Source: an uncultured Gemmatimonadales bacterium
GTDB lineage: Bacteria; Gemmatimonadota; Gemmatimonadetes; Longimicrobiales; RSA9
Direction: 5' to 3'
NCBI GenBank assembly: GCA_963741945.1
Contig: CAVUKA010000004.1
Span: 253,500 to 317,499 of the forward strand
Length of the DNA stretch: 64,000 bases
Part shown: in pieces, positions 4,573-44,454 of the stretch
Layout: each line of letters starts with the position of its first letter
How positions within the stretch are numbered: the stretch's first letter is position 1
Notes under the pieces: model-generated
What the model saw: the letters and a program-made list of their open reading frames with translations, nothing else
Database searches by the model: none
Told to the model about the DNA's origin: nothing
Program-made: the position numbers and the translations under genes

Positions 4573-7089
4573 CTACTCGTCGTCTTCCGCTGCCGCCACC
4601 AGCTCGAGCTGCTCGTCGGTGTCGCCGCGCTCCGCCCCTTCCTGCCTGCGCTCCGACTCCCGCTCTGAAGCCACCCGGCTGATTTCCACGATCCGATCCC
4701 CCGTCTTCACATTCACCAGGAGCTTGCCCTGCGTGGCCCGGCCCTGCACGGGGACCTGCGCGGCTGCGAGGCGCCCGGCCTGCCCGCCCGCGGTGATCAC
4801 CATCAGCTCGTCACCCTCGAGCATCTCCTTGGCGCCCACGAGCGGGCCCGTCCGGTCGCTCACGCTCAGCGCCGCCATCCCCTGACCACCGCGCCCCTGG
4901 ACGCGGAAATCCCCGATCGGGGTACGCTTCCCGAAGCCATTGGCGGTCACGCACGCCAGCGTGGCGTCGCGCCGGACCACCACCATGCCCACGACGACGT
5001 CGCCCTTCTTCATCCGGACGCCGATCACGCCCTGCGCGTTCCGCCCCACTTCCGGCACATCGGTCTCGGGGAATCGGATCGCGCGGCCGCCCGCCGTGAC
5101 CAGCACCACATCGTTGATGCCCTCGCTCACCCGCACGTCCAGCAGCTCGTCCCCGTCCTTCAGGTTGATGGCATTGATGCCGCCGGCCCGTACGTTGGCG
5201 AACTCGGCCAGCGGTGTTCGCTTCACGATGCCGCCCCGGGTCAGGAACACCAGGTCGATCTCGGCTTCGTACTCGTTCACGGGCAGGAGCGCGGCCACCC
5301 GCATGTCGGCCTGGAAGCCGAGGAGCTGGTTGAGCGCGCGGCCGCGCGATGCCCGGCCGCCTTCCGGGAGGTCCAGCACTGCGATCTCGTACGCCTGTCC
5401 GTCCGCCGTGACCACGAGCACGGCATCATGGGTGCTGGCGATGAAGACGTGCTCGAGGAAGTCGTCCTCGTACTTCTCCATCCCGGCCAGCGCCTTCCCG
5501 CTGGTGACCCGACGCCGGTAGAGCGAGACGGGCATCCGGTTGATGTAGCCCTCGTGCGACACGGTGATGACCACGTCCTCCTGCGCCACCATGTCCTCCA
5601 TCTTGAACTCCGCGTCGCCCTCCAGGATGGTGGTGCGGCGGCCATCCCCGTACTTCTCCACGACCTCCGCCGTCTCCGCCAGCAGCACCGCCGCCTGCTT
5701 CTCGTCGGAGTCCAGCAGATCGTACAGCTCCCGGATCTGCTTCTTCAGCTCCTTCAGCCGGGCCCGCAACTCCCGCGTCTCCAGCTCGGTGAGCCGATGG
5801 AGGCGCATGTTCAGAATGGCGTCCGCCTGGATGTGCGAGAGCTCGAATCGTGCCTGCAGCCGCTCGCTCGCCTGCTCCTTCCCCTTCGAGTCCCGGATGA
5901 TGCGGATCACCTCGTCGATATTGTCGAGCGCGGTGATCAGCCCCTCGGTGATGTGCGCTTCCGCCTTCGCCTGCTCCAGCTCGTACGCCGCCCGCCGCTG
6001 GATGACCTCGATGCGGTGCTCGCGAAACTTCTCGAGCAGCTCCTTGAGGTTCATCTCCCGCGGCACGCCGTGATCCAGCGCCAGCATGATGGCGCCGAAC
6101 GTGGCCTGCATGTACGTCTTCTTGTACAGCTTGTTGAGGACCGGCTTCACCTTCGCGCCGCGCTTCAGCTCGATCACGATGCGCATGCCGTCCCGGTCAC
6201 TCTCATCCCGCAGGTCGCTCACGTCATCCAGCTTCTTCTGCCGGACGAGGTCGGCCACCTGCTCGATCACTTTCGACTTGCTCACGCCGTACGGCAGCTC
6301 CGTGACCACCAGCTGCTCTTTTCCCCCGCGCTTCGCCTCGCGCACGACCCGGGCACGCATGGTCATCCGACCGCGCCCGGTGCGGTACGCTTCCAGGATC
6401 CCCTCCGTGCCGATGATGAAGCCGCCCGTGGGGAAGTCCGGCCCGGGGATGTGGGCGATGAGGTCGTCCACGGTGCAGTCGGGCTGCTCCACCAGGTGGC
6501 GGAGCGCGGCCGCCACTTCCCGCAGGCTGTGCGGCGGCACGTTGGTGGCCATGCCCACCGCGATGCCGGACGACCCGTTGATCAGCAGGTTCGGCAGCTT
6601 CGATGGCAGCACCACGGGCTCATCGCGCTGGTCGTCGAACGTGCGGGCGAAGTCGACGGTGTCCTTGTCGAGGTCGGTCAGGAGGTCCGTGGCCAGCGCC
6701 TGCAGGCGCGCTTCCGTGTAGCGGTAGGCCGCCGCGTTGTCGCCATCGATGGAGCCGAAGTTCCCCTGCCCGTCCACCAGCGGGTAGCGCAGCGAGAACT
6801 CCTGGACCATCCGGACCATGGCGTCGTACACCGCGCTGTCCCCGTGCGGGTGGTACTTCCCCAGGACCTCGCCCACCACGCTTGCGGACTTCTTGTACGG
6901 GCGTCCGGGGTTCAGTCCCAGGTCGCTCATGGCGTACAGGATGCGCCGGTGCACCGGCTTCAGCCCATCCCGCACATCCGGCAGCGCCCGCTGCACGATC
7001 ACGCTCATTGAATAGTCGAGGAAGGACTCCCGCATCTCCTCCTCGATGAGTCGCGGCACCACACGCTCACGCCGCTGCGGCATCACCAT
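4573..7089 (-). CDS. gyrA: Type IIA topoisomerase subunit A (GyrA/ParC family; GyrA-box degenerate)
   Basis: [22 protein letters not shown], catalytic AAYRYTE, beta-pinwheel CTD repeats. Confidence 0.9.
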
Positions 7090-7281: not shown

Positions 7282-8208
7282 CTATCGCCGCACCACCTGC
7301 CTGGCCACGAACCAGAGGTTGGCCGGTCGCTCCGCCAGGCGCCGCACGTACCAGGGGTACCAGCGCTCGCCGTAGGAGATCAGCACGCGCACCACCTCGC
7401 CCTCCCCGGCCAGGCGCTGCTGGAGATCGGCCCGGATACCGTACAGCATGTGGAACTCGATCTGACCGGGACGCAGGCCGCGCGCCCGCGCGGACTGGCG
7501 GAGTCGTCCGATCAGCCCGGCATCGTGGGTGCCGAACACGGGAGCGGCAGCCTCGATGTAGTCCCGGTCCTCGATCATGCGCGCGGCCAGGTCGTGAAAG
7601 CGCCGGTCGACCTCCTTCTTCCGGGGGATGGCCACATCGGGCCGCTCCCGGTACGCGCCTTTCACGAGGCGCACGCGGATGGCGGCGCGGCGGAGCCGAT
7701 CCAGGTCGGCCGGGGTCCGGTGGAGGTAGGCCTGCAGGCAAACGCCCACGCCCGGCGACTCCTGCCCGACCGCAGTCACGAGATCGAGCGTGCGGTCCAC
7801 GTAGGAGCTGTCCTCCATGTCGACCCAGATCGTGCTGCCCATCTCCCCCGCCCTGCGCACCAGCCGCTCCAGGTTCCGGAGCGCAACGTCCTCCCCGAGG
7901 TCCAGCCCGAGGTGTGTCGGCTTCACCGAAACCTGCCCGGGGATGTCGAGCTCCGCGGCACGGGCCAGCACCTGCTCGTAATGCGACGCCGTGCCGGCCG
8001 CCTCCCCGGGCGTCCTCACGTTCTCCCCCAGCTGGGTGAAAACGGCCCCGATTCCGCTCCGCCCCAGCGTCGCCGCCGCCGCCACCGCGTCATCCAGCGC
8101 TTCACCGGGCATGAACCGGCGCACCGCCCGGCGGGCGAAAGCCCGCTGCGTGGCGAAGCGCTCCAGCGCCGCCGACCGGGACATGCTCAGCAGGACGGAT
8201 CGGATCAT
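7282..8208 (-). CDS. Monofunctional proline dehydrogenase
   Basis: SVKPTHLG, VDMED, LQAYL, RLVKGAY, GTHD and YVRRLAERPAN motifs. Confidence 0.93.
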   Translation of the reverse strand: MIRSVLLSMSRSAALERFATQRAFARRAVRRFMPGEALDDAVAAAATLGRSGIGAVFTQLGENVRTPGEAAGTASHYEQVLARAAELDIPGQVSVKPTHLGLDLGEDVALRNLERLVRRAGEMGSTIWVDMEDSSYVDRTLDLVTAVGQESPGVGVCLQAYLHRTPADLDRLRRAAIRVRLVKGAYRERPDVAIPRKKEVDRRFHDLAARMIEDRDYIEAAAPVFGTHDAGLIGRLRQSARARGLRPGQIEFHMLYGIRADLQQRLAGEGEVVRVLISYGERWYPWYVRRLAERPANLWFVARQVVRR

Positions 8209-8396
8209 GGGGGGCGTGCTCCTGCGTGGGTTCGGGTCTGAACCGGCGTGGCGGCGTGCGCCGGGCAAGGATCGTCGGCAGTCCGGCCGCCCATGGTTTT
8301 ACCGCCGGCGCGAACGGGGTGTCAAGCCGGCGACGGCCGCCGGGTCGTCCTGTTCCGCTATTCCGCTGCCCCGGTCTGCTGGCGGTATTCGGCCCC

Positions 8397-11300
8397 ATGG
8401 CGGACGCGACGAATCTGCGACGGCGGGCGGAGGCCTCGGCGACCTGGACCGGGCTGGTCGGCCTGCTCCGAGAGCTGGGCCTCGAGGGAGAAGCGGACGT
8501 GGTGCCGCACGGCGCCTGGCCCGCCTGGGGGCTTGCAGCACCGGGCGACGTCGAGTGCCTGGTCATCGCGGGTCATGCCGGCACGCTCACCGGCCTCGTG
8601 CTCCAGCTCGGGGCGAGTGCCACCGCGAACACGATCGTGCAGATCGCTCGTGGGATCCGGCGTCGCAATCCGGCGAAGCTCTACCTCTTCGCGTTCGCGG
8701 ACGCGGCAGCCGGGCAGGTCACGGTCGGTACGTTCGCCTCGGACGCCGAGTTCCGGTACCTCCGCTTCGAGCCCGCGCGGGTCCTGGCCTCCGATGTGGA
8801 CGCGCTCCAGGAGATGATGGCGGGGCAGGGCGAGACCGGTCTCGAGCTCGCGCTCCGCCACGCCAGGGCCCTCGATCGATCCCGTATCACCCGGCGGTTC
8901 TTCGACCAGTTCCGCGCGCGGCGGGATGCGCTATCGAGGGCGTGGACCGGAATCCCGGCCAGCGCCGGGCGCGAGCGGGCCGAGCTGTCGCTCCTGCTCC
9001 TGAGTCGCCTGACCTTCCTCTACTTCCTGCAGCGCAGGGGTGCGCTGGCCGGCGACGACCGTTACCTGCCCCACCTCTTCGGCGCGTGGTGCGATGGCCC
9101 GCCGGAGCCGGGCAGCTCGTTCTATCGGGCCAGGCTGCGGCCCCTCTTCTTCGGCGCGCTCAACCGCAGGCTGGAAGACAGGGAGCCGCAGGCGCTCGAC
9201 CTCGGCGCCCTGCCGTACCTGAACGGCGGCCTGTTCGAGCCGCACGCACACGAGCGAGCGTTCCCCGACCTCGACCTCCCGGACCGCGAAGTGCTCTCGG
9301 TCCTCGACGATCTCCTCGAGCGATACCGCTTCACGTCCCGCGAAGCGGGCACGAACGCCGGCTTCGGCGTGGACCCGGAAGTGCTCGGGCGCGTGTTCGA
9401 AGGCCTCATGGACCCGGATCGCCGCGACGAGACCGGCAGCTATTACACGCCCGCGCCCGTGGTGCACCGGATCGTGCGGGAAGCCTTGAAGGAGTACGTC
9501 GCCGCCCACGTGCCCGGTGTCCAGCCGGGGCCGCTGCTCGATGGTCGGGTCGGGCAGCTGGACCCGGCCACGCGCTACCGGACACGCGAGACGCTGCAGC
9601 GGGTGCGCATCCTGGACCCCGCGTGCGGCTCGGGCGCATTCCTGGTGGGCGCGCTCCACTCCCTCGCGAGCGCGCTGGGGGCCGTGACCGATGGCGAGAC
9701 CCACGCCCTGCGGCAGAAGATCGTCGCCCGCTCCCTCCACGGCGTCGACCTGCTGGATGACGCGGCGCTCCTCTGTTCGTTGCGGCTCTGGCTCGCCCTG
9801 GCCGAGGACGGGAACGAGATCCGGCCACTGCCGAACCTCGACCACCGGATCCGCCAGGGCGACGCCCTGCTCGACCCCCTGGACCTCGCCGCCACCCGGC
9901 TGCCACCGCACCAGCCGTGGCACCCCGCCGCCGATCCCGACCTGCGCCGCGCGCTCCGCGCCGTCCCCGCCGCCGCCGTCGGCTACACGAACTCGGAGCC
10001 AGCCGGGCGCGCCGCCGCCCGGCAGCAGCTGGCCAATGCCGAGTCCGTGCTGGCCCGACACTGGGTCCGCGCGCTCTCCACCCGACAGCGGGAGTGGATC
10101 CGCCACTTCCGGGCAGCCGCCGCCGACCGGGACCTGTTCGGCGAAAGGCCCCGCAGCGCCCGCACCGCGGAAGCGGCATGCAAACAGGCCCAGGCACGTC
10201 TCGGGGAGCTGGAAGCCGTCGCTCGACAGATCAAGGAGAGCGGCGCGCTGCCGTTCTTCAGCTTCGGCGTCCACTTCGCGGCCGCGGAGCGCGGGTTCGA
10301 CATCATCCTCTCCAATCCGCCATGGGTCCGGTCGCACCGCTGGCCCCAGCGGCTCAGGAGCATCGCCGCGGAACGCTTCGAGGTCTGCCGGCATTCCGGC
10401 TGGCCGGCCGCGGCTCGCCTCACCGGCGTGCCCGCCGGTACCGGCTCTCAGGTGGACCTTTCGCTCCTCTTCGTCGAACGCGCCATACGCCTCCTCGCGC
10501 CGGGCGGGGTCCTGGCGGTGCTCGTTCCCGCCAAGGCACTGCGCGCGCTCTACGGCGGCGGGCTTCGACGTATCATGTTGCGGGACCTGGAGTTCGCTCT
10601 CATCGAGGACCACTCGCTCGATCCACACGCCATGTTCCGGGCCGATACCTTCCCGGCCATTTTCGTGGCGCGTCGGCCAGGCGACCCCGGGAGTGACCCC
10701 GGGAGCGACGTCAAGGGAACAGCGGCATCGGCGGTGCAGAAGCGGCTGGTCCGGCCGTCCGCGTCCGCCTGGCGCGGCGGGGCTCCTCTCCGCTGGAGTT
10801 CACGGTCAGGGACGTGGATCTCCCGCTGTTTCCCGGTGATCCCGCATCTCCATGGCTGCTCGCCCCGCCGGATGTGGTGGCAACGATCCGGGGCATGCAG
10901 CGGGCGGGCGCGCCTCTGGGTGACAGCGCCCGTCCGCGGGTTCACCGCGGCATGATGACCGGTGCGAACGAGATCCTGCTGTTCTCCCGTGTCGAGCCGC
11001 TGCTGGGCGGGCTGTCTCGGGCGGAAGCGGAGGGCTTCCGCAGGGCGCGTCGCGATGGGTCCGGCGCGGGCGGCGCGAGCCCCTTCCGTGCGTACGTGGA
11101 GACGTCATCGCTGCGGCCGCTCATCCGGGGTTGCGACATCGATGCATTCCATTATCGGACCTCGAGTTACACGGCCTGGTGCCACGACAGCTCCGGTGCC
11201 CCCGTGGCGCCGCCGCCGCGCATGGCGCGCTATCTGGCGCGACACCGCGCGGCGCTGGAGGCGCGGCCCGGTTGGAACCCAGGGCTGCCGCTCGGCGCCG

Positions 11301-11782
11301 TGTTCCGGCTGTCGGCCGCCACACTCGGCCCGAAGGTGGCGTGGCACGACCTTTCGGACACGCTTCGCGCCGTGGCGCTGCCCGGGAGCACGGCGTTCGG
11401 CGGGCGCCCGCGGGAGCTGGTCCCGCTCAACACGGTCTACTTCCTCCCGGCGCCAGAGCGGGACGGAGGGATGGCGCTGGCGGGCCTTCTGAACTCACTG
11501 CCCGTGCGGACGTTTGCCCGGGCCATCGCGGAGCGTGCCAAGGATGCCCGCTTCCGCTTTTTCGCCTGGACGGTGGCGTCCGTTCCGCTGCCACACGCGT
11601 GGGAGCGCTCGCGCGCCGGCCGGGAGATTCGCCTTCTGTCGCGGGCCGCGCACGAGGGCGGCGGGTTGGACCCGGCCGGCCAGGCGTCGCTCGATCAGGC
11701 TGCCGCGGCGGTGTACGGTCTCGGGACTGCAGAGATGGAGGCGCTGGAGCGGTTCGATCGCTGGCTGCGAGGCAGGCCATGA
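8397..11782 (+). CDS. Eco57I/type IIG-like N6-adenine DNA methyltransferase with TaqI-like C-terminal specificity domain; frameshifted near 10700-10760
   Basis: PYLNGGLF, LGRVFE, GSYYTP, ILDPACGSGAF (motif I), NPPW (motif IV); continues in the -1 frame with RGMMTGANE, PKVAWHD, PLNTVY and LLNS. Confidence 0.85.
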
Positions 11783-12312
11783 CGCCGGTATTGATGGACG
11801 AGGAGGCGCGACCAACGGTCCGGGAGCGGTTCGGCGCGGCCATGGCCGGCGCGGTGTCCATGGATGTGGCCGTGGCGCGAATCCGTCTCGCCGCCCTCGA
11901 CCTGACGGAGCGGGAGCTCGGCGGCGTGCGGCGATGCCGTCTGCTTCTCGGCGAGCTGGACGCTTCGACCCTGCTGGATGCCGCGGAAAGTGAGACTGCG
12001 CGTGACCGCCTGCGCGCGTTCGCCGGGAGCGGCCGTCTCGAGGTCCGGTCTGCGGGACTCGGTGCCTGGTCTCCCGACTTCTGCGTGAGCCGGGGCACGG
12101 CCGGGGTGGTCTCGATGGTGGGTGCCATCTACTTCGGGAATCCGCGGCTCCTCACGGGTCCGGCTTTCACACTGGTCTCCGCGGAGGAGGACTGGGCCGC
12201 ACTCCTATCGGTGCGATTCGACGCGCTGTGGGAGCGTGGCCACGACGTCCTCCCCGCGATCCGGGATGTCCTGGATCGCGCCGACGGGCTGGAAGCACCG
12301 GCGCCTTCGTGA
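11779..12312 (+). CDS. Small phospholipase D-like fold protein lacking the HKD motif
   Basis: ATGA overlap with the methyltransferase stop; PLD-like pattern (DVAVARI...RLLLG...LEVRS...MVG...FDALW) with WSPDF where HxK is expected. Confidence 0.6.
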   Translation: MTPVLMDEEARPTVRERFGAAMAGAVSMDVAVARIRLAALDLTERELGGVRRCRLLLGELDASTLLDAAESETARDRLRAFAGSGRLEVRSAGLGAWSPDFCVSRGTAGVVSMVGAIYFGNPRLLTGPAFTLVSAEEDWAALLSVRFDALWERGHDVLPAIRDVLDRADGLEAPAPS

Positions 12313-15032
12313 GTGCCCGTGCCCTCGGAATGGCGGGAGGACAGCCCGCGCGCCGTCGCGTTCCGGATCCTGGCGGAGCTCTTCCAGGAAGAATCGGCGG
12401 ATGCCCGTCGCCTGGCGGAGAACGCCGCCGGGGCGGGCATCAGGCTGCTCCCTTTCCAGGAGGCCGCGGTGGCCCGCGCCCACGCCATCCTCCGGCGTCA
12501 CGGCGGCGTGGTGGTTGCCGACGGTGTGGGGATGGGGAAGACGTTCGTCGCGTCGGCACTCATTGCCGGCGCCCTCCGCGACGGCGTGCCAGCGGGAGTC
12601 ATCGTGCCGCCGGCGCTGCGACCCAAGTGGCGGTCAATGCTGCGGGACATCGGGGCGACGGCACCGACCGCGGCCGTGGAGCTCGTTTCGGACGCCTCGC
12701 TCAGCCGTGGCTCCTTCCCGGCAGCCCTGTTCCGCGCCCGGCTGCTGGTCATCGACGAGGCGCACCGGTTCCGGAACCCTGCCACGCGACGGTACGCCGC
12801 CCTCGCCCGTCTCCTCGAGCCACGCGAAAGTCCGGGGCCACCGCGCGTGGTGTTCCTCACGGCCACCCCGGTGAACAACGCACCGGCCGACCTGTACTCG
12901 CTGCTTCGCCTGTTCGCACCGGACGACGCGTTCCGGCACCTCGGCGTCCCCAGCCTCGCGGAGGCGTTCGGCGCGGGGTCCACGGGCCGGCGCCGCGGCA
13001 TGGCCGACCATGCGGCCGTGCGGCGCGTGGCAGCCGAAGTCGTGATCCGACGCACCCGCGACGCATGGACAGCGCGCGTCCGCACCGCCTGGGCGCCGAT
13101 CTCCATGCCGTTGCGGGCGAGAGGAGCGCTCACCCGCTGCGCTTCCCCCTGCGCCTCCCTCCGCAGCTCATTCACTACGACGGCACTGCGCTGGAGCTCG
13201 CTGCCGGCGAGCTGGCACAACTCGAGCTGCGCGCGCCCGAAGCGGCCGTGCGCCAGGCGGGCACCGGCGGCGCCCGCCGTCCCTCGGCCTCGGGGGCGGC
13301 GGAGCTCGTCCGGCTCGGCCTCCTCAAGCGGCTGGAATCCGGCCGTGCTCCCGCGCTCGCGAGCATCCGCCGCCACCTCTCCTTCCTGCGGGCGTTCATC
13401 GCCGCGGCGGAGAGGGGCCGCCTCCTGCGCGCCGGAGGGCACGGACCGGGGGCCCGGGCGGATGCGGATCCCGCGCAGCTGCTCATCCTGGACCTCGTGG
13501 CCGATCCGGTGCCCTCCGGCCTCGACCTGCGCGCGCTCGTTGCCTCGGCGGAGCGGGATCGTGCGCGGCTCACGGGCCTGCTCGCCACGCTGTCCGCGCC
13601 AGACCCGAAGGTGGCACGGTGCCGGCAGCTCGTCGCCGCCATCGCCCCGGAGCGCGTCGTGATCTTCACGGAGTATCGCGACACCGCGCAGGCCCTCTGG
13701 CGAGCCCTCGCCGACTTCAGGGTGGCGCGGGTGGACGGCGGAGGCGGTTGGCTGGGACTCCGACCCGCGAGTCGGCGCGCTGTCCTGGAACGCTTTGCCC
13801 CGGCGGCAATGGGCCAGCCGGAGCCCGTCGCGCGGGAGCGGGTCGACGTCCTGGTGGCCACCGACGTGTTCGGAGAGGGGGTGGACCTCCAGGACGCACG
13901 GCACGTCATCAGCTTCGACCTCCCATGGAATCCCGTCCGGCTCCTCCAGCGAACCGGCCGCGTGGATCGGCTCGGCTCCCCCCACCGTGAGGTCGTGCCC
14001 TACCTGTTCGTGCCGGACGGCGCACTCGATGCCCTCCTGGGCCTGACCCGCCGGATCCGGGGCAAGCTCATCGGGATCACGGGAACGGTGGGAGCGGAAG
14101 GCGCGCCGGACCTGCTGGAGTGCCTGGGGCGAGGGAGCGCCGCCGTGGCAGAGGCGCTCGACTGGATGGCCCTGTCCGGTGACCCGGTGATGATGGAGTC
14201 GCTGCGGCGACTCTGGGAAAGGACGCCGCGAGACGACGCTCTCGCCGCGGAGCGGAAACTGCCGCGGGGGAGCCGCACGGCCGCGCCCGTGGACGTGGGC
14301 TCGGACCCGGTCATCCTGGTCCGCGCCGCCGGGAAAGCGTGGCTGCTTCAGCCTTCGGCGGAGGACGGAGGCCCGGCTCTCAGGGAGGCGGACCACACGG
14401 CGGTGGTCACGATCCAGGCCGCGCTCCCGCTCCTCCATGCGGACCGCCCCGTACCCGCTGTCACCCTGGCCGCCGTGGACCGAATGGTGGAGCGGTTCCT
14501 GGCCGAGATCCGGTCCAGGCGGCGCGCTCCCGCGGCCGTGCCAGGGGGAGCGGCCGTCGCCCGGGTAGCCGCTGCGATCCGGACCTGGGCGGAAGTCGAC
14601 GGAACGGCCGCCGGCCCGACGACCCTCGCCCGCGCCGACCGCCTGCTCGCCCGACTCGCGAAGCCGCCAGGTCCCGCCGTGGAGCGCAGGCTGCGCACTC
14701 TCCTGCATCAGCAGCCGGTCAGGGATGGGATGCGCGCGTGGATCACCGCCATCGAAGAAGCGCTCGGAGTGGAGCCGCCCCTGACGCCGCCGGAAGACTC
14801 GGCCGCGGGCTGGAAGCAGCCAGGCACCGCGGCCCGGCCGGATCCCATCACCGGCTCCCGCGCGGACACCATCCTCGCGCTGATCCCCGGCTCCTCCAGA
14901 GGCTGGGAGGCATCGCGTCGACGCCCGCCAGGAATGGACCGGGCGCCGCAGAACCGGCGCGTCAGCGGGCGGGCACACGACGCGCCGGGCCGCCCGCACG
15001 AAGCGGTTGACGGAGCCGGTGGCCCTGATTAG
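12313..15032 (+). CDS. SNF2-family helicase/translocase; frameshifted near 13060-13135
   Basis: ADGVGMGKT, IDEAH, LTATPVNN and IRRTR in the first frame; VIFTEYRDT, ATDVFGEGVDLQ and WNPVRLLQRTGRVDR in the -1 frame. Confidence 0.85.
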
Positions 15033-15035
15033 CTT
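15007..15035 (+). promoter_or_regulatory. Sigma70 promoter of tRNA-Asn
   Basis: TTGACG-17 nt-TAGCTT, 11 nt before the tRNA. Confidence 0.7.
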
Positions 15036-15046
15036 CGGCCGTCTAT

Positions 15047-15119
15047 TCCCGCGTAGCTCAGCTGGTAGAGCAACCGGCTGTTAACCGGTTTGTCGCAGGT
15101 TCGAGTCCTGCCGCGGGAG
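15047..15119 (+). tRNA. tRNA-Asn(GTT); CCA not encoded
   Basis: Cloverleaf: TCCCGCG/CGCGGGA acceptor stem, GCTC/GAGC D arm, ACCGG-CTGTTAA-CCGGT anticodon arm, GCAGG-TTCGAGT-CCTGC T arm. Confidence 0.97.
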
Positions 15120-15123
15120 CTGA

Positions 15124-15178
15124 AACCGCCGCCGAGACCCCCTTGTGCCGCAAGGGATTCCGGCGGCGGTTGCGTTTT
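15124..15178. terminator. Terminator-like hairpin between the tRNA and the convergent phosphatase gene
   Basis: AACCGCCGCCG/CGGCGGCGGTT stem with inner CCCTTG/CAAGGG, followed by GCGTTTT. Confidence 0.65.
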
Positions 15179-15201
15179 GGGTGTTGTTTCCGGCGGCCGT
15201 T

Positions 15202-16410
15202 TTACCCGGAGCGTCGCAGTCCGAAGAGGGTCACGTCGTCGAAAGGATCGGCCTCACGGGTGTGGCTCCGCAGCGCTTCGATGACGGCGTCGAGCGTTTC
15301 TTCCACCGAGGCTCGCGGCTCGTCGAGGATGTGGATGAGCCGGTCCTGTGAGAAGGGGGCGCCATCGGGGGATCGAGCATCCACTACACCGTCCGTGAAA
15401 ACCACCAGGGTATCGCCGGGCTCGAGGCGTGTGTGGTCGCTATTGAACTCGAGGCCCGGGAGCATCCCCACCGCGGGCCCGGTGGGCGCGAGAACCGCCT
15501 TGATCCCGTTGCGCGCGGTGACCACCGGGGCGTCGTGTCCGCCATTTACGTACACGATCTCGCCGGTGGCCGGGTCCAGGATGGCCAGGAAGATGGTGGC
15601 GAACATGTGCGTGCTGCCGTGATTGATCGCGACGTAATCATTGACCGCTCCCATGAGGCGACGGGTCTGGGCGCGGGGATCGCCATCGGGGGTGAGGAAG
15701 CGGTCGCTCAGCGAGCGGAGAAGCGTGCGAACGAGGGCCATGAAGAGGGCGGCGCCGACTCCCTTCCCGCAGACATCGGCCACGACGATCCCGACGCGCG
15801 CGCCCTCGTCGAGGAGGAACGCGTCATAGAAGTCTCCAGCCACGGTGCGCGCCGGCTGGAACCGGGCGGCGAGCTCCCAGCCGGCGGGGGCGGGGAGTGT
15901 CTCGGGGAGGAAGCCGGCCTGGATGTCCCGGGCGATGTCGATCTCGCGCGCGAGGGCCCGGGCATAGAGCTTCTCGCGGTCCCGGAGCCGCTTCTTGGCC
16001 AGACAGGCCTCGACGCGCGCATGGAGGATCTGGGGGTTGAACGGCTTCGGCAGGTGATCGTCCGCGCCCATCTCGATGCCCCGGATCACGCTCTGGGTGT
16101 CGTCGAGGGCGGAGATGAGGATGACCGGCATGTGGCGGAGGGCTTCGTCGCCCCGGATGTGCTCGAGCACCTCGTAGCCGTTCATCTCGGGCATCATGAT
16201 GTCGAGCAGCACCACGTCGAACGGCTGGCTGGCCATGCGATCGAGGGCCTCGCGGCCGTTCCCGGCCTCTTCCACGGTGTGGCCCCGCCGCGTAAGGCGA
16301 CGGACGAGCATCTCCCTGTTCACGGTGGTATCGTCGACCACCAGGATGTGGCCAGGCTCGCCGAGGATCCTGTCGCCTCCACCGGCGTCGGTCGCCGGGC
16401 CGTCAGGCAC
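15202..16410 (-). CDS. Response regulator receiver + PP2C/SpoIIE phosphatase (RsbU/RsbP-like)
   Basis: ILVVDD, LLDIMMP and KP receiver motifs; VAGDFYD, ADVCGKG, FTDGV and DDVT phosphatase motifs. Confidence 0.93.
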   Translation of the reverse strand: MPDGPATDAGGGDRILGEPGHILVVDDTTVNREMLVRRLTRRGHTVEEAGNGREALDRMASQPFDVVLLDIMMPEMNGYEVLEHIRGDEALRHMPVILISALDDTQSVIRGIEMGADDHLPKPFNPQILHARVEACLAKKRLRDREKLYARALAREIDIARDIQAGFLPETLPAPAGWELAARFQPARTVAGDFYDAFLLDEGARVGIVVADVCGKGVGAALFMALVRTLLRSLSDRFLTPDGDPRAQTRRLMGAVNDYVAINHGSTHMFATIFLAILDPATGEIVYVNGGHDAPVVTARNGIKAVLAPTGPAVGMLPGLEFNSDHTRLEPGDTLVVFTDGVVDARSPDGAPFSQDRLIHILDEPRASVEETLDAVIEALRSHTREADPFDDVTLFGLRRSG

Positions 16411-21970: not shown

Positions 21971-23725
21971 CTACGGTGTCGGCCGGCTGGCGGGCTCCGT
22001 GAGGACGTAGAAGTTCGGGTCCACGCGGAACGCTTCGGACGACGGCAGGCTGACCGTGGTCTCTCGCCACGCCCCGCTCGCCGGGACGATCCAGGCAAAG
22101 CGATCGGGTGTCACGGTCACGCGGATCGGCATTGCGAAGCCATCCACGTCCGCCTTCCACCGGTAGCGCAGGGTCTGGCCGTCGAGCACGTATTCGAGCG
22201 TGGGCGGTTGCGTGTGGCGCAGGTACTGGTCGAACACGGGCCCGAGGTCGATGCCGGAATGGGCCGTCATGTAGTGTTCGACCTGCTCCGAAGTGACGGT
22301 CTGGTGCCCGAGCTCGCGCTGCAGTCCGGTCAGGATCCGGCGCCAGAGGACGTCGTCGTCCACCAGCTGCCGGATGGTGTGCAGCATGTTGCCACCCTTG
22401 TAGTACATGTCACCGGATCCCTCGGCGTTGACGCCGTACGGCCCGATGATGGGTCGATCGTTGCGGATCCGGGCGCGCGTGCCGATGACGTACTGCGCGC
22501 CCGCCTGCTTCCCGTACAGGCACTCGGTGTAGAGGCTCTCGGCGTAGTTGGCGAAGGATTCGTGGATCCACATGTCCGCGATGTCCCTGCTGGTGATGCT
22601 GTTCCCCCACCACTCGTGGGCGCTCTCGTGGACGATGATGAAGTCCCAGAGGAGGCCCCACCCCGTGCCGGAGAGGTCGCGGCCCAGGTAGCCGTTCTGG
22701 AACTGGTTCCCGTACGCCACGGCGCTCTGGTGCTCCATCCCGAGGTGAGGCGCCTCCACGAGCTTGTAGCTGTCTTCGTAGAACGGGTATGGGCCGAACC
22801 AGTGCTCGAAGCAGCGGAGCATCGGCTTCACCTGCACGAACTGCATCCTGGCCTGCGGCAGGTGCGGCGCCAGCACCCAGTAATCCAGGTCCAGCGTCCC
22901 TTTCTCCCCCGCGAACGTGTCGCCGAAGTGGACATAGTCGCCGGCGTTCACCGCCACGTCGTAGTTGTTGATCGGGTTGTCCACGAACCAGGTGTACGAC
23001 GTGGTGCCGTCCGCGTGCTTCTCGGTCCCGCGCAGCCGGCCGTTCGAAACATCGACCATGCGGGACGGAACGGTGATCCGGATCCGCATGCTGTCCGGCT
23101 CGTCCGACTGATGGTCCTTGTTGGGCCACCAGATGCTCGCACCCACGCCCTGATTGGCCGTGGCCACCCACGGCTCCCCGTTCGGGTCCGTACGCCAGAT
23201 GAAGCCGCCATCCCAGGGCGGGTTTTCCGCAACGCGCGGGCGGCCGTGGTAATAGACCGCAACGCGCCCGGTGCTGCCCACGGCGGGGGTGCCGGGGATC
23301 GTCACGAAGAAGGCGTTCCCATCCCGCCGGTAGGTCAGGCGACGCCCCGCCTGCACCATGCTGTCGACCACCAGCGGCGTCATCAGGTCGATCTGCATCT
23401 CCCTGGGCGGTGCCGTGACCGTATACGTGATGGTGTTCGAGCCGGCAATGGTGGAGTCGGCCGGACTCACGCGCACATCGAGGTCGTAGAACCGAACGTC
23501 CCACCACCCCCGCTCGGGCGTGATGCTGCCCCGGAGCGTGTCGGCGTGGGTGGAGGATGGCCGTTGCGCCGCCAGCGGAGCCGCCACGGCCGCGGCGAGG
23601 AGGGCGAAGGCGAGGGCGGGGCGGACTGCGCGCCGCGCCGGGCGCCCGGTCGTAGTGGTGTCCGAAGTCGTCAGGTCCGCGCGTGCGGCGGCGGGAAAGG
23701 CTCGCATCGTGAAGCCGATCTCCAT
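21971..23725 (-). CDS. M1 family metalloaminopeptidase, secreted (start uncertain)
   Basis: GMEHQ, HESAHEWWGN...WIHE, YYKGG; signal peptide. Confidence 0.9.
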   Translation of the reverse strand: MEIGFTMRAFPAAARADLTTSDTTTTGRPARRAVRPALAFALLAAAVAAPLAAQRPSSTHADTLRGSITPERGWWDVRFYDLDVRVSPADSTIAGSNTITYTVTAPPREMQIDLMTPLVVDSMVQAGRRLTYRRDGNAFFVTIPGTPAVGSTGRVAVYYHGRPRVAENPPWDGGFIWRTDPNGEPWVATANQGVGASIWWPNKDHQSDEPDSMRIRITVPSRMVDVSNGRLRGTEKHADGTTSYTWFVDNPINNYDVAVNAGDYVHFGDTFAGEKGTLDLDYWVLAPHLPQARMQFVQVKPMLRCFEHWFGPYPFYEDSYKLVEAPHLGMEHQSAVAYGNQFQNGYLGRDLSGTGWGLLWDFIIVHESAHEWWGNSITSRDIADMWIHESFANYAESLYTECLYGKQAGAQYVIGTRARIRNDRPIIGPYGVNAEGSGDMYYKGGNMLHTIRQLVDDDVLWRRILTGLQRELGHQTVTSEQVEHYMTAHSGIDLGPVFDQYLRHTQPPTLEYVLDGQTLRYRWKADVDGFAMPIRVTVTPDRFAWIVPASGAWRETTVSLPSSEAFRVDPNFYVLTEPASRPTP

Positions 23726-23730
23726 CTCAG

Positions 23731-26082
23731 TCAGTTCATCGGCCGCCCGCCCGCGGGCAGCCGCTCGAGCAGGAAGCGGGTCAGCAGCGAGTACACGTGG
23801 AGGGTGGTTCCCGGTCCCTCACAGATGCAGTGGCTGCGGTTGGGATAGGACATGTACCGGAACGGTTTGCCGAGCTCGATGAGGCGATTGACCAGTCGCT
23901 CGCTGCCCTGGGCGTGGACGTTGTCGTCGCCGGTGCCGTGGACCAGCAGGAGATCGCCCCGAAGCCCTTCCGCGAAATTGATCGGTGAGCCCACGCGGTA
24001 GCCTTCCGCGTTGTCCTGCGGCAATCCCATGTAGCGCTCCTGGTAAACGGTATCGTAGAGCCGCTGGTCGGGCACGGGGGCCACGGCCATCCCGACACTG
24101 TACACTTCCGGGTAGCGGAACAGGGCGTTGAGGGTGGCCGACCCGCCGCCACTCCACCCCCACACGCCGACTCGCGTGGAATCCAGGTAGGGGCGACTCC
24201 GGGTCAGCGCGCGCACCGCCTCCGCCTGCTCACGGCTCGACAGCACGCCGATCCGTCCGTACACCACTTTGCGCCACGCACTCCCTTTCGGCGCCGGGGT
24301 TCCGCGGTTGTCGACGCTGGCCACGACATAGCCCTGGTCCGCCAGCAGGCGGTGCCACATTCCGCGCCCCCCCTGCCAGCCGTCGCGCACCGTCTGCGCC
24401 GCCGGCTCCGTGTAGACGTGCATCAGGAGTGGATACGTCCTGGACGGGTCGAAGTCTCCGGGGAAGATCATCCACCCGTCCAGCGCGACGCCGTCCCCTA
24501 TGTCGACCTGGAAGAACTCCTCCCGACGCTCCAGCGCCGGGGCCGCCGCGGCCCGCACCCGGTCGTTGCTCACCAGTGTCCGCACGAGGGAGTGGTCCGG
24601 GAGGCTCACGAGATCCGTGGTGGGAGGGGCGCCGAAGCTGGAGCGCGTGTGCAGCGCCCACCGCCCGCCGGGTGCTTCCTGGTAGCTGTGGGTTCCCGGC
24701 TGGTCGGCGGGCGTCAGCCGTCGCGCCGTGCCGCCGGACAGGGGAACGCGGAAGAGGTAGGCCCGGGTCGCGTCGGAGGGGGAGGCCATGACGTCGATCC
24801 ACCCGGCTTCGGGGTCCACGGCCACCACGGACATGACGTCCCACTCGCCCGGCGTCAGCAGCGTCTCTGTTCCGCGGCGGTCCACCACGTAGAGGTGGCG
24901 CCAGCCGTCCCGCTCGCTCACCCACAGCATTCGGCGGCCGTCCTCGAGCCAGCGCCAGTCGTCGACCACGTCCAGCCACGCGCTGTCCCGCTCGGTGAAC
25001 AGGTCGCGCACCGCGCCCGTGCCGGCGCTGGCGAGCAGGACGCGGTCGGTGTTCTGGAGCCGGTTCATTCGCTGCAGCACCAGCTCATCGGGCCCCACCC
25101 ACTCCATGCGCGGCAGGTAGTCATCGCGGGAGTCGCCGGGAAGGTCGAGCCAGACCGTCGCGCCGCCGCCCGCGGGGACGACACCTGCGCGCACGGCCGA
25201 GTTCGTGGTGCCGGCCTTGGGGTACTGGACCGGGATGGTGAACGAGTACAGGGAATCGGTGTCGTTGATGAGCAGGTAGCTGCGCACACCGCTCATGTCG
25301 AACTGCCAGTATGCGATGCGGCTCCCATCGGGCGACCAGCGGAAGGCGTCGCGCAGCCCGAACTCTTCCTCGTAGACCCAGTCGGTGGTGCCGTTCACCA
25401 GCGTGGACGAGCCGGTGCGGGTGAGACGAACCGGGGCGACGGGTGTCCCGTCGGCGCGCAGCGACTGCACGTAGAGATCCCCTTCCCGCACATAGCCGAC
25501 CCGGTCGCCGTCGGGCGAGAACTTGGCGAACATGAGCGTGGCTGGCGCGGCCTCCGTGCCGCCGAGCCTGGACAGGGTCCCGGCGTCGAGGTCCAGGACC
25601 CAGTAGTCGCCCCGCGTGTTGTCACGCCAGACGCGTCGGGAGTTGGTGAAGACGAGCAGGCGCCGACCATCGGTGGACCAGTGATAGTCCTCGATGGCCA
25701 GCGGGCGCGCGCCTGGGGCCGGCGTGAGCTGCGCGGCGCCGATGTAGACATCACGGGCGCCCGTGGCCGCGTCGTAGCGGACTATGTCGGATCCCGTGCC
25801 GTCGGCGGACGGCTCCACGGTGGTGTAGCTGCTCCCATTGAGCCAGCGGGCGGGGCCGAACCGATCCGGTACATAGGTTCGCGAGGCGAAGATCCGCTCG
25901 AGCTCCGCGGTGACGACGGGATCCAGGCCTGATGCGCGCGGCTCGTCCGCCGCCGCGACACCGGCCGGCTCCTTCGGCGCGGATCGACCGACCTGGGCCA
26001 TGAGCGGCGTGGCCGTCGCGGCCATGCAGACGGCGGCGGATGCGAATGCGGCGGCGAGCGCCGCCGTGTGGAAGCGTCGCAT
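23731..26082 (-). CDS. S9 family dipeptidyl peptidase IV
   Basis: DWVYEEEF, YPKAG, GWSGGG, HGTGDDNVH; signal peptide. Confidence 0.93.
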   Translation of the reverse strand: MRRFHTAALAAAFASAAVCMAATATPLMAQVGRSAPKEPAGVAAADEPRASGLDPVVTAELERIFASRTYVPDRFGPARWLNGSSYTTVEPSADGTGSDIVRYDAATGARDVYIGAAQLTPAPGARPLAIEDYHWSTDGRRLLVFTNSRRVWRDNTRGDYWVLDLDAGTLSRLGGTEAAPATLMFAKFSPDGDRVGYVREGDLYVQSLRADGTPVAPVRLTRTGSSTLVNGTTDWVYEEEFGLRDAFRWSPDGSRIAYWQFDMSGVRSYLLINDTDSLYSFTIPVQYPKAGTTNSAVRAGVVPAGGGATVWLDLPGDSRDDYLPRMEWVGPDELVLQRMNRLQNTDRVLLASAGTGAVRDLFTERDSAWLDVVDDWRWLEDGRRMLWVSERDGWRHLYVVDRRGTETLLTPGEWDVMSVVAVDPEAGWIDVMASPSDATRAYLFRVPLSGGTARRLTPADQPGTHSYQEAPGGRWALHTRSSFGAPPTTDLVSLPDHSLVRTLVSNDRVRAAAAPALERREEFFQVDIGDGVALDGWMIFPGDFDPSRTYPLLMHVYTEPAAQTVRDGWQGGRGMWHRLLADQGYVVASVDNRGTPAPKGSAWRKVVYGRIGVLSSREQAEAVRALTRSRPYLDSTRVGVWGWSGGGSATLNALFRYPEVYSVGMAVAPVPDQRLYDTVYQERYMGLPQDNAEGYRVGSPINFAEGLRGDLLLVHGTGDDNVHAQGSERLVNRLIELGKPFRYMSYPNRSHCICEGPGTTLHVYSLLTRFLLERLPAGGRPMN

Positions 26083-26214
26083 GGTTGTTCTCCGGCATCG
26101 GCTCGGGGCGGGGCTTCGGGGACACTCACAGGTATCACCCCCCGCCGCACATCGCCAGGCTCCGACGTTTGCCCGGGAGGCACCGGGCACCGCAAACGGC
26201 GTGGCCGTCGCGCC

Positions 26215-38294: not shown

Positions 38295-39656
38295 TCACCC
38301 ACCGAACTCCGCGCGGAGCGCTTCCACGCGCTGGCGCATGCTTTCGTTCTCCTCGATCTCGCGCTCCACCTTGTTGATCGAGTGGATCACCGTGGAGTGG
38401 TCTCGCCCGCCGAAATGATCGCCGATCCGGGCGAGCGGCAGGTCGAGCAGCTCACGCATGAGGAACATGGCCACCTGCCTCGGCACCGTGACTTCCTTGG
38501 TGCGACGGCGGGACGTCAGCGCTTCGACCGGGATGTTGAATGCCTCCGCGACGCGCTTGCGGATGGATTCAGGCGTGCGCTCCGTATCCGGGGCGAGCAC
38601 GCCGCCCAGCGCTTCGCGCGCGAGCTCGATGGTGATGTCGCGCTGCGTCAGAGACGAGTAGGCCAGCAGCTTGATGACGGCTCCCTCGAGCTCGCGGACG
38701 TTGGACCGGCAGTGATGGGCGATGTACTCCAGCACCTCGTCGGAGATGACGATCTCGCCCTCGTCCGCCTTCTTGCGGAGGATCGCAACCCGCGTCTCGA
38801 GGTCGGGGCTGCGGATGTCGGTGACGAGCCCCCATTCGAACCGCGAAACCAGACGCTCCTCCAGACCCGGGATCTCCTTGGGAGGGCGGTCGCTGGTGAG
38901 CACGATCTGACGCTGCGCTTCGTACAACGCGTTGAACGTGTGGAAGAACTCCTCCTGCGTGCGCTCCTTCTCCCCCAGGAAATGGACGTCGTCGATGAGC
39001 AGCAGGTCGATCTCCCGGTAGCGCCGCCGGAATTCCGACATCCGGCCTTCCTGGATCGACGCGATCAGATCGTTCGTGAACCATTCGCTGGAGACGTATG
39101 CCACTCTCCGCGCCGGCTCACGTGCGAGCAGCACATGACCTATCGCGTGCATGAGATGCGTCTTGCCCAGCCCAACACCACCGTAGATGAACAGAGGGTT
39201 GTACATGCGGGCCGGAGACTCCGCCACCGCCCGCGCCGCCGCGGCGGCGAGCTGGTTGTTGCTCCCGACCACGAACCGCTCGAACGTGTAGCGCTCGTTC
39301 AGCGGGGCCCCCACGGGCTCCGGCGGAGCGGACACCGCGGGGATGCGCGCTGGCGCGGACTGCGCAGGGGCCGTGATGGTGGGGCCGGACGGCCGCTCTC
39401 GCCCTTCGGCGTGGTGCTGGAACGAGATGGTCAGCCTTCGCCCCAGCACCTCTTCGGCCAGGTCGGCGAGCATGCGACCATACTTGTCCTCGATCCACTC
39501 CGCGGCGAACTCGCTGCCTGCCCCGATGGCGAGCAGATCCTGCGACAGGGCAAGCGGCTCTGTTTCCGCGAGCCAGATCCGGAAGGTTGGCTCGGGGAGC
39601 GCTGTCCGGGCTCGTTCGAGGATCCGGGACCATGCCTCGAGGGCGGTTAGCTCCAT
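38295..39656 (-). CDS. dnaA: Chromosomal replication initiator DnaA
   Basis: [34 protein letters not shown] and GGRDHSTV motifs. Confidence 0.98.
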
Positions 39657-39700
39657 CGCATCGTGTGAAAATCCAGGCAGGATTTCGGTGCCGCCCGGGC

Positions 39701-39730
39701 AAGCTAACGGGCGGGCTGCGGATGCGTCAA
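39701..39730 (-). promoter_or_regulatory. Putative dnaA promoter
   Basis: TTGACG-18 nt-TAGCTT, the same hexamers as the tRNA promoter. Confidence 0.55.
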
Positions 39731-42365: not shown

Positions 42366-42660
42366 CTACCGCAGGATCTCGAACCGGGCCGGGAGATCGT
42401 CGCGGCCCGGTTCCGTTTCGTCCACCGCCTGGACGTGAGCGCCGGGTGGCCCCTCGAGGAGCGCCTTCCGGAGCTCCGCCAGGGAAGACGCCGGGCCGAC
42501 GGCCTCCACTTCCACAGTGCCGTCGCGAGCGTTGCGCACGGTTCCGCCCAGACCGAGCTCGCCGGCGGTGTGTCTCGTCCACCAGCGGAACCCCACGCCC
42601 TGCACCCGGCCGCGCACGACCCAGGCCCTGCGGGTCTGTTCTTCAAGGCGCGGCCGTCAT
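42366..42660 (-). CDS. acyP: Acylphosphatase; 5' end frameshifted near 42645
   Basis: GRVQGVGFR, G.VRN..DGTVE and GPPGA motifs; no in-frame start upstream of the first beta strand, and the RBS-preceded ATG at 42660 is one base out of frame. Confidence 0.85.
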
Positions 42661-44377: not shown

Positions 44378-44394
44378 CGGCGGTTTCGGTGGCA

Positions 44395-44410
44395 TGTTTC
44401 ACGTGAAACG
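44395..44410. promoter_or_regulatory. parS site 1
   Basis: TGTTTCACGTGAAACG vs consensus TGTTTCACGTGAAACA. Confidence 0.92.
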
Positions 44411-44454
44411 CGGGCGTCCGGGCGGAGGATGCAGGTTTCGGTCCCGGCCCCCGA

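Follow-up and report, generated by a model that had tools for sequence, protein, structure and literature searches.

A conserved DNA methylase-SNF2 gene pair of Gemmatimonadota as a candidate domesticated module derived from a restriction system

A stretch of 64,000 nucleotides (hereinafter referred to as the window; G000:C4:253500-317499) from the genome of an uncultured Gemmatimonadales bacterium (G000; 4.09 Mb, 8 contigs, 70% G+C, 96.7% complete) was found to carry three consecutive genes directly before tRNA-Asn(GTT). They encode an N6-adenine DNA methylase, a phospholipase D (PLD)-fold protein without the catalytic HKD motif, and a SNF2-family ATPase. The unit conserved in other genomes is the methylase-SNF2 pair, which is near-core in most Gemmatimonadota families, and the trio is its Longimicrobiales-type version. 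Judging from the alignments, the two would-be DNA-cutting domains of the system, namely the PD-(D/E)XK-like N-terminal domain in the methylase and the PLD domain in the SNF2 protein, are without catalytic residues; the catalytic motifs of the methylase, its recognition domain and the ATPase motifs of SNF2 are conserved. We lean towards the reading that this is a domesticated, restriction-derived methylation/translocase module which lost its cutting parts and was retained for another job.

A scan of 185,579 species genomes with a methylase profile returned 230 relatives, and 76 loci were kept. SNF2 was encoded downstream in 67 of these, including all 63 with at least 1500 nucleotides (nt) of room. 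The titles of the set were almost all Gemmatimonadota, and some contigs were labelled Gemmatimonas. Four contigs labelled as metagenome-assembled genomes (MAGs) of Proteobacteria, Myxococcota or Acidobacteria (L102, L107, L109, L113) also carried the pair, at 33-38% identity and with a bare SNF2; contigs with labels other than Gemmatimonadota may reflect gene transfer or mis-binning.

Among 401 Gemmatimonadota genomes, three of them unpublished, 255 matched the methylase profile (A2) at E ≤ 1e-40. By family (f1 being that of the window and f2 its sister family), matches were found in 6/7 genomes of f1, 151/166 of f4, 90/93 of f5, 2/2 of f6 and 4/5 of f8, in 1/70 of f2, and in 0/57 of f3, f7 and f9-f12. 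The f4 matches spanned the profile over its positions 10-857 only, f4 being a family in which the recognition domain differs. An internal stop occurred in only one of the 150 methylase matches listed. In all 19 loci fetched from f4, f5 and f6, SNF2 lay 45-270 nt after the methylase; the SNF2 proteins of f4 and f5 had no PLD domain, and that of f6 had a divergent, HKD-less one. The loci of 95 further genomes showed just the pair or the trio. That the genes occur together in other genomes, as expected from the first-pass annotation of the window, is thus borne out by the two sets in which SNF2 directly followed the methylase (63/63 and 19/19). That annotation had taken the three genes as the unit, which had to be revised, the PLD-like part being lineage-specific, often fused to SNF2, and stand-alone in f2.

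A search of 41 relatives, with tallies that include unpublished genomes, showed the PLD-like gene in 19 of the 24 other f1 genomes; of the same 24, 20 had the methylase. At f1 loci, the genes always stood in the order methylase, PLD-like, SNF2. The PLD-like part was a separate gene in G000, G001, G005, G019, G015 and G024, and formed the N-terminus of SNF2 in G006, G013, G007, G405 and the unpublished G020; one locus row of the layout comparisons (L017) likewise came from an unpublished genome. In the phylum-wide set, a PLD-like domain was detected in 42 of the 76 kept loci, and in 40 of the 44 that combined at least 41% methylase identity with enough room. tRNA-Asn lay downstream in 20 of the 76 (among loci with 4500 nt or more of room, 14 of 22 in the closer group and 0 of 26 in the distant one).

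Around the pair, the neighbourhood is stable and made up of housekeeping genes, and the pair has diverged in the pattern of vertical descent. Methylase identity to the window tracked GyrA identity (Spearman 0.70, n = 17 published genomes, related genomes not being independent). The flanking genes were gyrA and the proline dehydrogenase gene in the window, and in f5 those for a glycosyltransferase, a HAD hydrolase and an ECF sigma factor. No full-length relative was present in 72,556 plasmid records, 17 of which had partial matches over about 25% of the query. tRNA-borne islands lie 3' of the tRNA. A mobile island at the tRNA was considered and rejected, as no tyrosine integrase was found on contig C4, the GC content of the trio region (0.71-0.75) was near that of the genome (0.70), the genes are located on the 5' side of the tRNA and share its strand, and 20/24 family genomes have the methylase. 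The earlier view of a long-resident locus rather than a recent island accords with its prevalence, the GyrA-tracking identity, the housekeeping flanks and the missing plasmid relatives and integrase.

In f2, the PLD-like protein was found without its partners. Of 70 f2 genomes, 28 matched the PLD-like profile, as did none of the 323 genomes that belong to neither f1 nor f2; the underlying alignment (A1) includes one row from an unpublished genome. In 15/15 f2 loci (L018, L021, L026-L036, L040, L041), the PLD-like gene stood alone on the strand of tRNA-Asn(GTT), the match ending 55-225 nt before it. Its other neighbours were unrelated and variable, one locus having an AAA_16-TPR protein and another thymidine kinase. 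With the methylase of G001, a genome of the same genus as G000, as query, no orthologue was found in any of five f2 genomes searched whole. The SNF2 query gave no orthologue-grade match in four of the five; in the fifth, a SNF2 gene of 36% identity lies at another place on the chromosome. A PLD-like tree was built with N-domains of distant SNF2 proteins as outgroup and a midpoint root, unpublished rows being left out. In this tree, the stand-alone f2 sequences formed a group (90/58) that was sister (100/99) to two trio-bearing lineages and nested among other trio lineages. On its simplest reading, the tree would have the trio ancestral in this order, with f2 having lost the methylase and SNF2 and retained the dead PLD protein.

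The methylase has an MmeI-type architecture, consisting of an N-domain, a helical spacer, a gamma-class N6-adenine methylase and a recognition domain, with a degenerate nuclease domain; the nuclease fold of the N-domain is suggested by weak matches to its structural model. Pfam matches comprised Eco57I, N6_Mtase and MmeI_Mtase, and the C-terminal piece was without a Pfam match; for the C-terminal domain, which had been called TaqI-like, the Pfam search returned no TaqI_C match. The best PADLOC models for the methylase were type IIG enzymes (1.8e-32), one of which alone spans the C-terminal domain (E 1.8e-8), and DrmMI reached 1.1e-21 over part of its profile. Searched against the sequences of solved structures, the methylase profile gave weak matches (MmeI, E 3e-6). 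Motif I (DPACGSG) and NPPW, together with many residues of the C-terminal domain, were invariant in nine orthologues from different genera. Column identity among 10 sequences was 0.34-0.41 in the first 150 residues, 0.58-0.76 in the catalytic part and 0.45-0.78 in the recognition domain; thus, the specificity domain is not where evolution has been fastest. A model of residues 1-300 (21 sequences) reached a score of 91.9 in pLDDT (predicted local distance difference test), and its residues 163-300 fitted the helical spacer of MmeI in an exhaustive aligner (Z 9.2, root-mean-square deviation 3.5, 116 aligned). The presumptive D...E-x-K columns of the N-domain were not kept (E in 14/21 sequences, K in 2/21, D in 4/21), with Q in place of E in the window.

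The PLD-like protein gave no match in Pfam, PADLOC or NCBIfam. Among 5.8 billion proteins, 125 homologues were found, all unnamed or "hypothetical"; the few with taxon names were Gemmatimonadota, and two fused homologues of 1131 amino acids (aa) carried SNF2 domains. A search of the ESM Atlas returned PLD-like leads alone and added nothing. The AlphaFold model (pLDDT 85.2) was built on 12 sequences, one of them from the unpublished genome G020, and had 83 structural matches at E ≤ 0.001. These included the NgoAVII R-protein (E 4.9e-7), SauUSI (E 1.1e-6), Zucchini, Nuc, and the non-catalytic FAM83 and TrmBL2 domains. The motif W-x-P-D-F stands where HKD would be, with W97, P99, D100 and F101 at 0.99-1.00 in 120 homologues; H, K and GSxN were replaced in all of these, and no column reached a K frequency of 0.3. 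The description of this protein as an HKD-less PLD fold was therefore upheld by both the model and the alignment. Also invariant or nearly so were R36, R54, R90, G115, G127-P128, T131, R146, W151 and H155-D156.

In PLD nuclease dimers, the two HKD motifs meet at the dimer interface. A homodimer prediction for the PLD-like protein scored 0.70, and the best of three controls scored 0.00; in calibration, the mark used was reached by 20 of 30 proteins solved as one-chain pairs and by 1 of 23 solved single chains. The runs shared at least 96% of contacts, with a partner pLDDT of at least 79. The predicted interface comprises residues 95-101, 112-116, 124-130, 146 and 149-150, and holds the invariant residues of the protein, those that replace HKD lying at the predicted, Nuc-like dimer interface. 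This prediction fits a domain that retained its pairing surface and lost its chemistry.

The SNF2 pieces matched SNF2-rel_dom and Helicase_C of Pfam, and motifs I, II (DEAH), III, V and VI were retained in 90% or more of 30 sequences sampled throughout the phylum. The intactness of the methylase and SNF2 motifs, read earlier from the window alone, therefore extends to its relatives. In PADLOC, SNF2 matched DrmD (2.8e-24) and HKD+Snf2 (5.4e-19), and in NCBIfam DrmD (6e-46). The NCBIfam scores were 122-157 bits for DrmD (cut-offs 610 and 950), 94-115 for DpdE (500), 87-97 for the PLD anti-phage protein NF042964 (1100) and 50-80 for RapA (576). A canonical HKD-nuclease-SNF2 fusion of 1100 aa was found in G219 of the same order (L039:8370-11672; P0123), with Pfam matches to PLDc_2 (1.4e-12) and RE_NgoFVII. 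It retains HxK...GSxN, lies away from tRNA-Asn and has no related methylase beside it. The SNF2 cores of the trio type were 31-34% identical to it.

Compared with known systems, the methylase resembles the type IIL/IIG enzymes MmeI, DrdV and BpuSI in its single chain, with an N-terminal alpha/beta domain, a helical spacer, gamma methylase motif I before NPPW and a C-terminal recognition domain. It differs from the MmeI family in that D...E-x-K is not conserved and sequence similarity is weak, and in that it is always paired with SNF2 and vertically inherited across a phylum. Dam and CcrM are lineage-wide orphan adenine methylases, which are small and have neither a motor partner nor restriction-enzyme architecture. 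The present methylase is similarly kept by vertical descent across a large clade in a housekeeping context, but has both of these features. SauUSI and the NgoAVII/CglI R-proteins, the top structural matches, likewise couple a PLD domain to an ATP-driven motor; they cut DNA with an HKD site and have no methylase partner of this kind, whereas the protein described here has no HKD. Pseudo-PLD domains (FAM83 DUF1669, the C-domain of TrmBL2) also have a PLD fold without catalytic residues and are used for binding, a likeness of principle alone, since sequence and context are unrelated.

Class 1 DISARM consists of the SNF2 protein DrmD, the methylase DrmMI, the PLD protein DrmC, DrmA and DrmB. The trio comprises the same three kinds of protein, and DrmD was the top-scoring named SNF2 family; however, its score was far under the cut-offs, the PLD part has no HKD, and DUF1998/MZB (PF09369; DrmA/DrmB) was not found in the genome, the control search matching 8/14 genomes. 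DrmMI was compared by PADLOC only. With regard to BREX, the sole PglZ match lay on contig C5, not C4, and PglX models scored 25-39 bits against cut-offs of 400-900. The absence of DrmA/DrmB, BREX genes and integrase, noted earlier for the window, thus held for DUF1998/MZB and DUF499 genome-wide and for tyrosine integrases on C4, with PglZ on another contig. HKD-nuclease-SNF2 fusions (the Type-2 BR helicase in the available part of PMC12839542, PADLOC HKD+Snf2, NF042964 and the G219 protein) share the order PLD then SNF2 and an N6-adenine methylase partner. In contrast, the PLD part here has no H, K or GSxN and no PLDc_2 match, its NF042964 score is far under the cut-off, and SNF2 of f4 and f5 is without any PLD domain. 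As given in the available part of PMC12839542, pairs of SNF2 and a PglX-like methylase are the core of type 3 BREX and BR/Hma systems, and the hallmark of BR/Hma is a DUF499 AAA+ ATPase with the methylase and SNF2 helicase; the same pair is the core of ARMADA II in the available part of 10.1101/2025.09.15.676423. The present pair looks like that defence core standing alone. DUF499 (PF04465) was not found in the genome, the same search matching 2/14 genomes as control, and as to Type-2 BR, no gene besides the trio lies between gyrA/proline dehydrogenase and tRNA-Asn, DUF3780 not having been searched for by family. In the literature, no paper on a Gemmatimonadota methylase-SNF2 module was found; the taxon and locus supplements of PMC12839542 lay outside the search and may include some of the loci.

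In the mechanism that we propose, an ATP-dependent restriction-modification ancestor would have been domesticated into the present module. Chromosomal DNA would be marked by the methylase at a fixed sequence motif. The SNF2 motor, in this order paired by way of the dead PLD domain, would translocate on DNA and either open access for the methylase or act on unmarked DNA without cutting it. The PLD-like dimer may have gained a second role of its own, because it was kept alone beside tRNA-Asn where both partners are gone. More tentatively, and with some doubt on our part, the system could be an epigenetic machine that is spread by vertical inheritance through the phylum and arose from a disarmed restriction system, namely a sequence-specific N6-methyladenine methylase with a dedicated SNF2 remodeller. 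The dead PLD protein would in this case serve as an adaptor in dimeric form and have a separate role linked to the one tRNA-Asn locus. In eukaryotes, SNF2-assisted DNA methylation is known from DDM1/LSH with the DNA methyltransferases (DNMTs), and the machine, if real, would be its bacterial counterpart. Restriction-like methylase-SNF2 pairs are known from patchy, mobile defence systems; here, such a pair belongs to the near-core gene set of a whole phylum and is a clear candidate for a defence system domesticated to a chromosomal function. The sister family f2, which kept just the dead PLD protein, always beside tRNA-Asn, offers a natural experiment. Contigs labelled Gemmatimonas, a genus with cultured strains, carry the pair, so that the proposal can be tested directly.

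In the present assembly, both large genes are frameshifted, whereas in relatives each is a single frame (1080-1130 aa for the methylase, and likewise for SNF2). The methylase is read in frame 0 from ATG 8397 to 10955 and in frame 2 from 10814 to 11782, and SNF2 in frame 1 from GTG 12313 to 13662 and then in frame 0 to 15032. Alignment to the same-genus orthologues placed the breaks at 10695-10730 and 13081-13136, respectively. A public run from a freshwater sediment metagenome (X1), kept as contigs and sharing 49% of the words of the window, contained a contig of 1029 nt over 10078-11123 (depth 6.2) that is without 17 nt at 10715 and has two other differences. Two further runs (X2, X3) shared almost none of the words. 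Leaving out the 17 nt joins the methylase into a single open frame of 1122 aa, which can be aligned over its whole length with that of G001 (73% identity). Therefore, an intact methylase allele exists in a near-identical population. Phase variation at the 17-nt site was dropped as an explanation, the site being without a repeat tract. For SNF2, the frame stays open wherever in 12900-13399 one unknown base is added; as the two frames are both open over that interval, such an insertion gives no location for the break. Both breaks fall in poorly conserved linkers, and there are no additional stops in either frame.

As background, 249 coding-like open reading frames (ORFs) from relatives' loci were compared with the whole genome; 82 were orthologue-like, many onto the same genes. 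Two frameshift-like splits were found outside the trio. An ABC-class ATPase gene of the window (42643-44443, - strand) is split at about 43655-43728 and is one frame in G001, which makes it the third break of this kind in the window. Beyond the window, at G000:C4 about 248700-249260, a small gene that encodes 189 aa in G001 aligns in two frames. Breaks in other genes mean that the assembly therefore has some indel-type breaks elsewhere. Two further candidates were dropped: rows L026-L029, which were paralogue matches 3 kb apart, and row L024, which covered two adjacent genes for S9 and M1 peptidases.

Several observations weigh against a domesticated, disarmed module. The genome counts are of species representatives, many of them MAGs of varied completeness, and related genomes are not independent. 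As to the nuclease-like fold of the methylase N-domain, Foldseek with the model of residues 1-300 found nothing at E ≤ 0.001, and in the exhaustive aligner residues 4-153 fitted nuclease-fold domains weakly, with Z 4.8 for residues 2-143 of DrdV, 4.3-4.4 for the BspD6I subunits, 4.3 for a putative restriction endonuclease domain and 3.6 for residues 6-174 of BpuSI. Moreover, the first catalytic column of E-x-K is still E in 14 of the 21 sequences. The dimer result may reflect likeness to solved PLD dimers. The C-terminal region of SNF2 (about 300 aa) had no conserved column and could hide an effector. BREX, too, has been reported without a recognisable nuclease in the available part of PMC9122589, and lack of a nuclease does not exclude defence. 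As for the breaks, two in 6.6 kb exceeds the background rate, and X1 had depth 0 over the SNF2 break (13059-13280), with no cover over 14613-14834 either.

The first-pass annotation proposed a defence system, a role that is not shown, both nuclease-like domains being without catalytic residues. An active anti-phage or anti-plasmid system fixed in the phylum, in which the methylase would mark self and a PLD-dimerised SNF2 would block or remove unmethylated foreign DNA, using either no classical nuclease (the case of BREX) or one that is non-canonical or recruited, is in our view rather unlikely. All the nearest profile matches are defence components (type IIG, DrmMI, DrmD and HKD+Snf2 in PADLOC; DrmD in NCBIfam), the pair recalls the core of type 3 BREX, BR/Hma and ARMADA II, and the variable C-terminus of SNF2 and poorly conserved N-domain of the methylase could be arms-race surfaces. 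However, prevalence is about 90% in two large families, the flanks are housekeeping genes, plasmids hold no full-length relative, the recognition domain has been conserved between genera instead of diversifying, the named systems' partner genes are all absent, and the PLD-like part persists in f2 without methylase and SNF2. That the locus belongs to, or is a remnant of, a described multi-gene system such as class 1 DISARM, BREX, BR/Hma or Dpd is very improbable. SNF2 is weakly similar to DrmD, DpdE, HmaA and BrxH, and the methylase to DrmMI and PglX, but DrmD (against the 610-bit cut-off), DpdE and PglX (39 bits against 400) all fell far short, searches of the genome for DUF499 and DUF1998/MZB found neither, the sole PglZ is on another contig, and the pair or trio stood alone at the loci of the 95 further genomes. 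The absence of a match to any described system model, proposed from the window, agrees with these PADLOC and curated NCBIfam scores and with the missing partner genes.

The module could also be a decaying relic in this genome, with both frameshifts real and fixed and no full methylase or SNF2 made, which we hold possible but doubtful. The two breaks lie close together, relatives are nearly always intact (methylase split in 1/76 loci, SNF2 in 1/67), just two other frameshift-like splits were seen in the survey outside the trio, and an indel of 17 nt is atypical for homopolymer error. Against this, the near-identical X1 contig has an intact methylase allele, the breaks in ordinary genes (the ABC-class ATPase and the small gene at about 249 kb of C4) fit assembly-level indels, and the breaks of the trio lie in poorly conserved linkers with no further stops accumulated. 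Strain-level or assembly-level changes are thus more likely than fixed decay. Confirmation of both frameshifts in reads had been named as the mark of a relic; the X1 contig contradicts the methylase break and gave no result for that of SNF2.

Table 1. Features of the methylase-SNF2 locus and its flanks (positions in the window).
Feature	Position	Strand	Remarks
gyrA	4573-7089	-	
Proline dehydrogenase	7282-8268	-	
N6-adenine DNA methylase, part before the break	8397..10714	+	Frame 0; nuclease-like N-domain aa 1-150, helical spacer like that of MmeI at aa ~160-300, motif I and NPPW in a gamma-class methylase
Frame-breaking stretch of 17 nt in the methylase	10715..10731	+	Missing from the near-identical X1 contig (public run)
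Methylase, part after the break	10732..11782	+	Frame 2; C-terminal target-recognition domain, well kept between genera
HKD-less PLD-fold protein, 177 aa	11779..12312	+	ATG overlaps methylase stop (ATGA)
SNF2-family ATPase	12313..15032	+	GTG start; frame 1 to 0 somewhere within 13081-13136
tRNA-Asn(GTT)	15047..15120	+	14 nt past SNF2 stop
Response regulator-PP2C gene	15202-16410	-	

The layout of the locus is given in Table 1. The ORF, tRNA and domain searches confirmed the operon-like arrangement first seen, that is, three coupled genes with an overlap and a zero gap beside tRNA-Asn: the PLD-like ORF starts at ATG 11779, overlapping the methylase TGA (11780-11782), and its end is directly followed by the SNF2 start. 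The tRNA-Asn gene of the locus is the sole one among 57 tRNA genes found in the genome. A promoter and terminator scan of 8100-15400 gave 0 promoter-like and 2 terminator-like sites, with no excess over shuffles. The database homologues closest to the proteins of the window were labelled Longimicrobiales or Gemmatimonadetes/Gemmatimonadota bacterium.

Further along the window, dnaA was identified at 38298-39713 (- strand), about 24 kb from the trio, in agreement with the origin-proximal position suggested earlier. The cumulative GC skew of the window rises after about 39-40 kb, and the window probably contains the replication origin or lies close to it. The gap between gyrA and the proline dehydrogenase gene is about 190 nt in the window and about 3.3 kb in the same-genus G001 (L011:2450-5780). 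A second GyrA-like gene, 59% identical, is present at G000:C3:848361-850487 and in most relatives, and is probably a ParC-type paralogue of topoisomerase IV. In addition, the S9 and M1 peptidases of the window (21971-26214) are encoded by two ORFs in different frames, whereas G001 has one open frame of 1513 aa (L024:9202-13743), which reflects either a frameshift in G001 or a stop-free junction.

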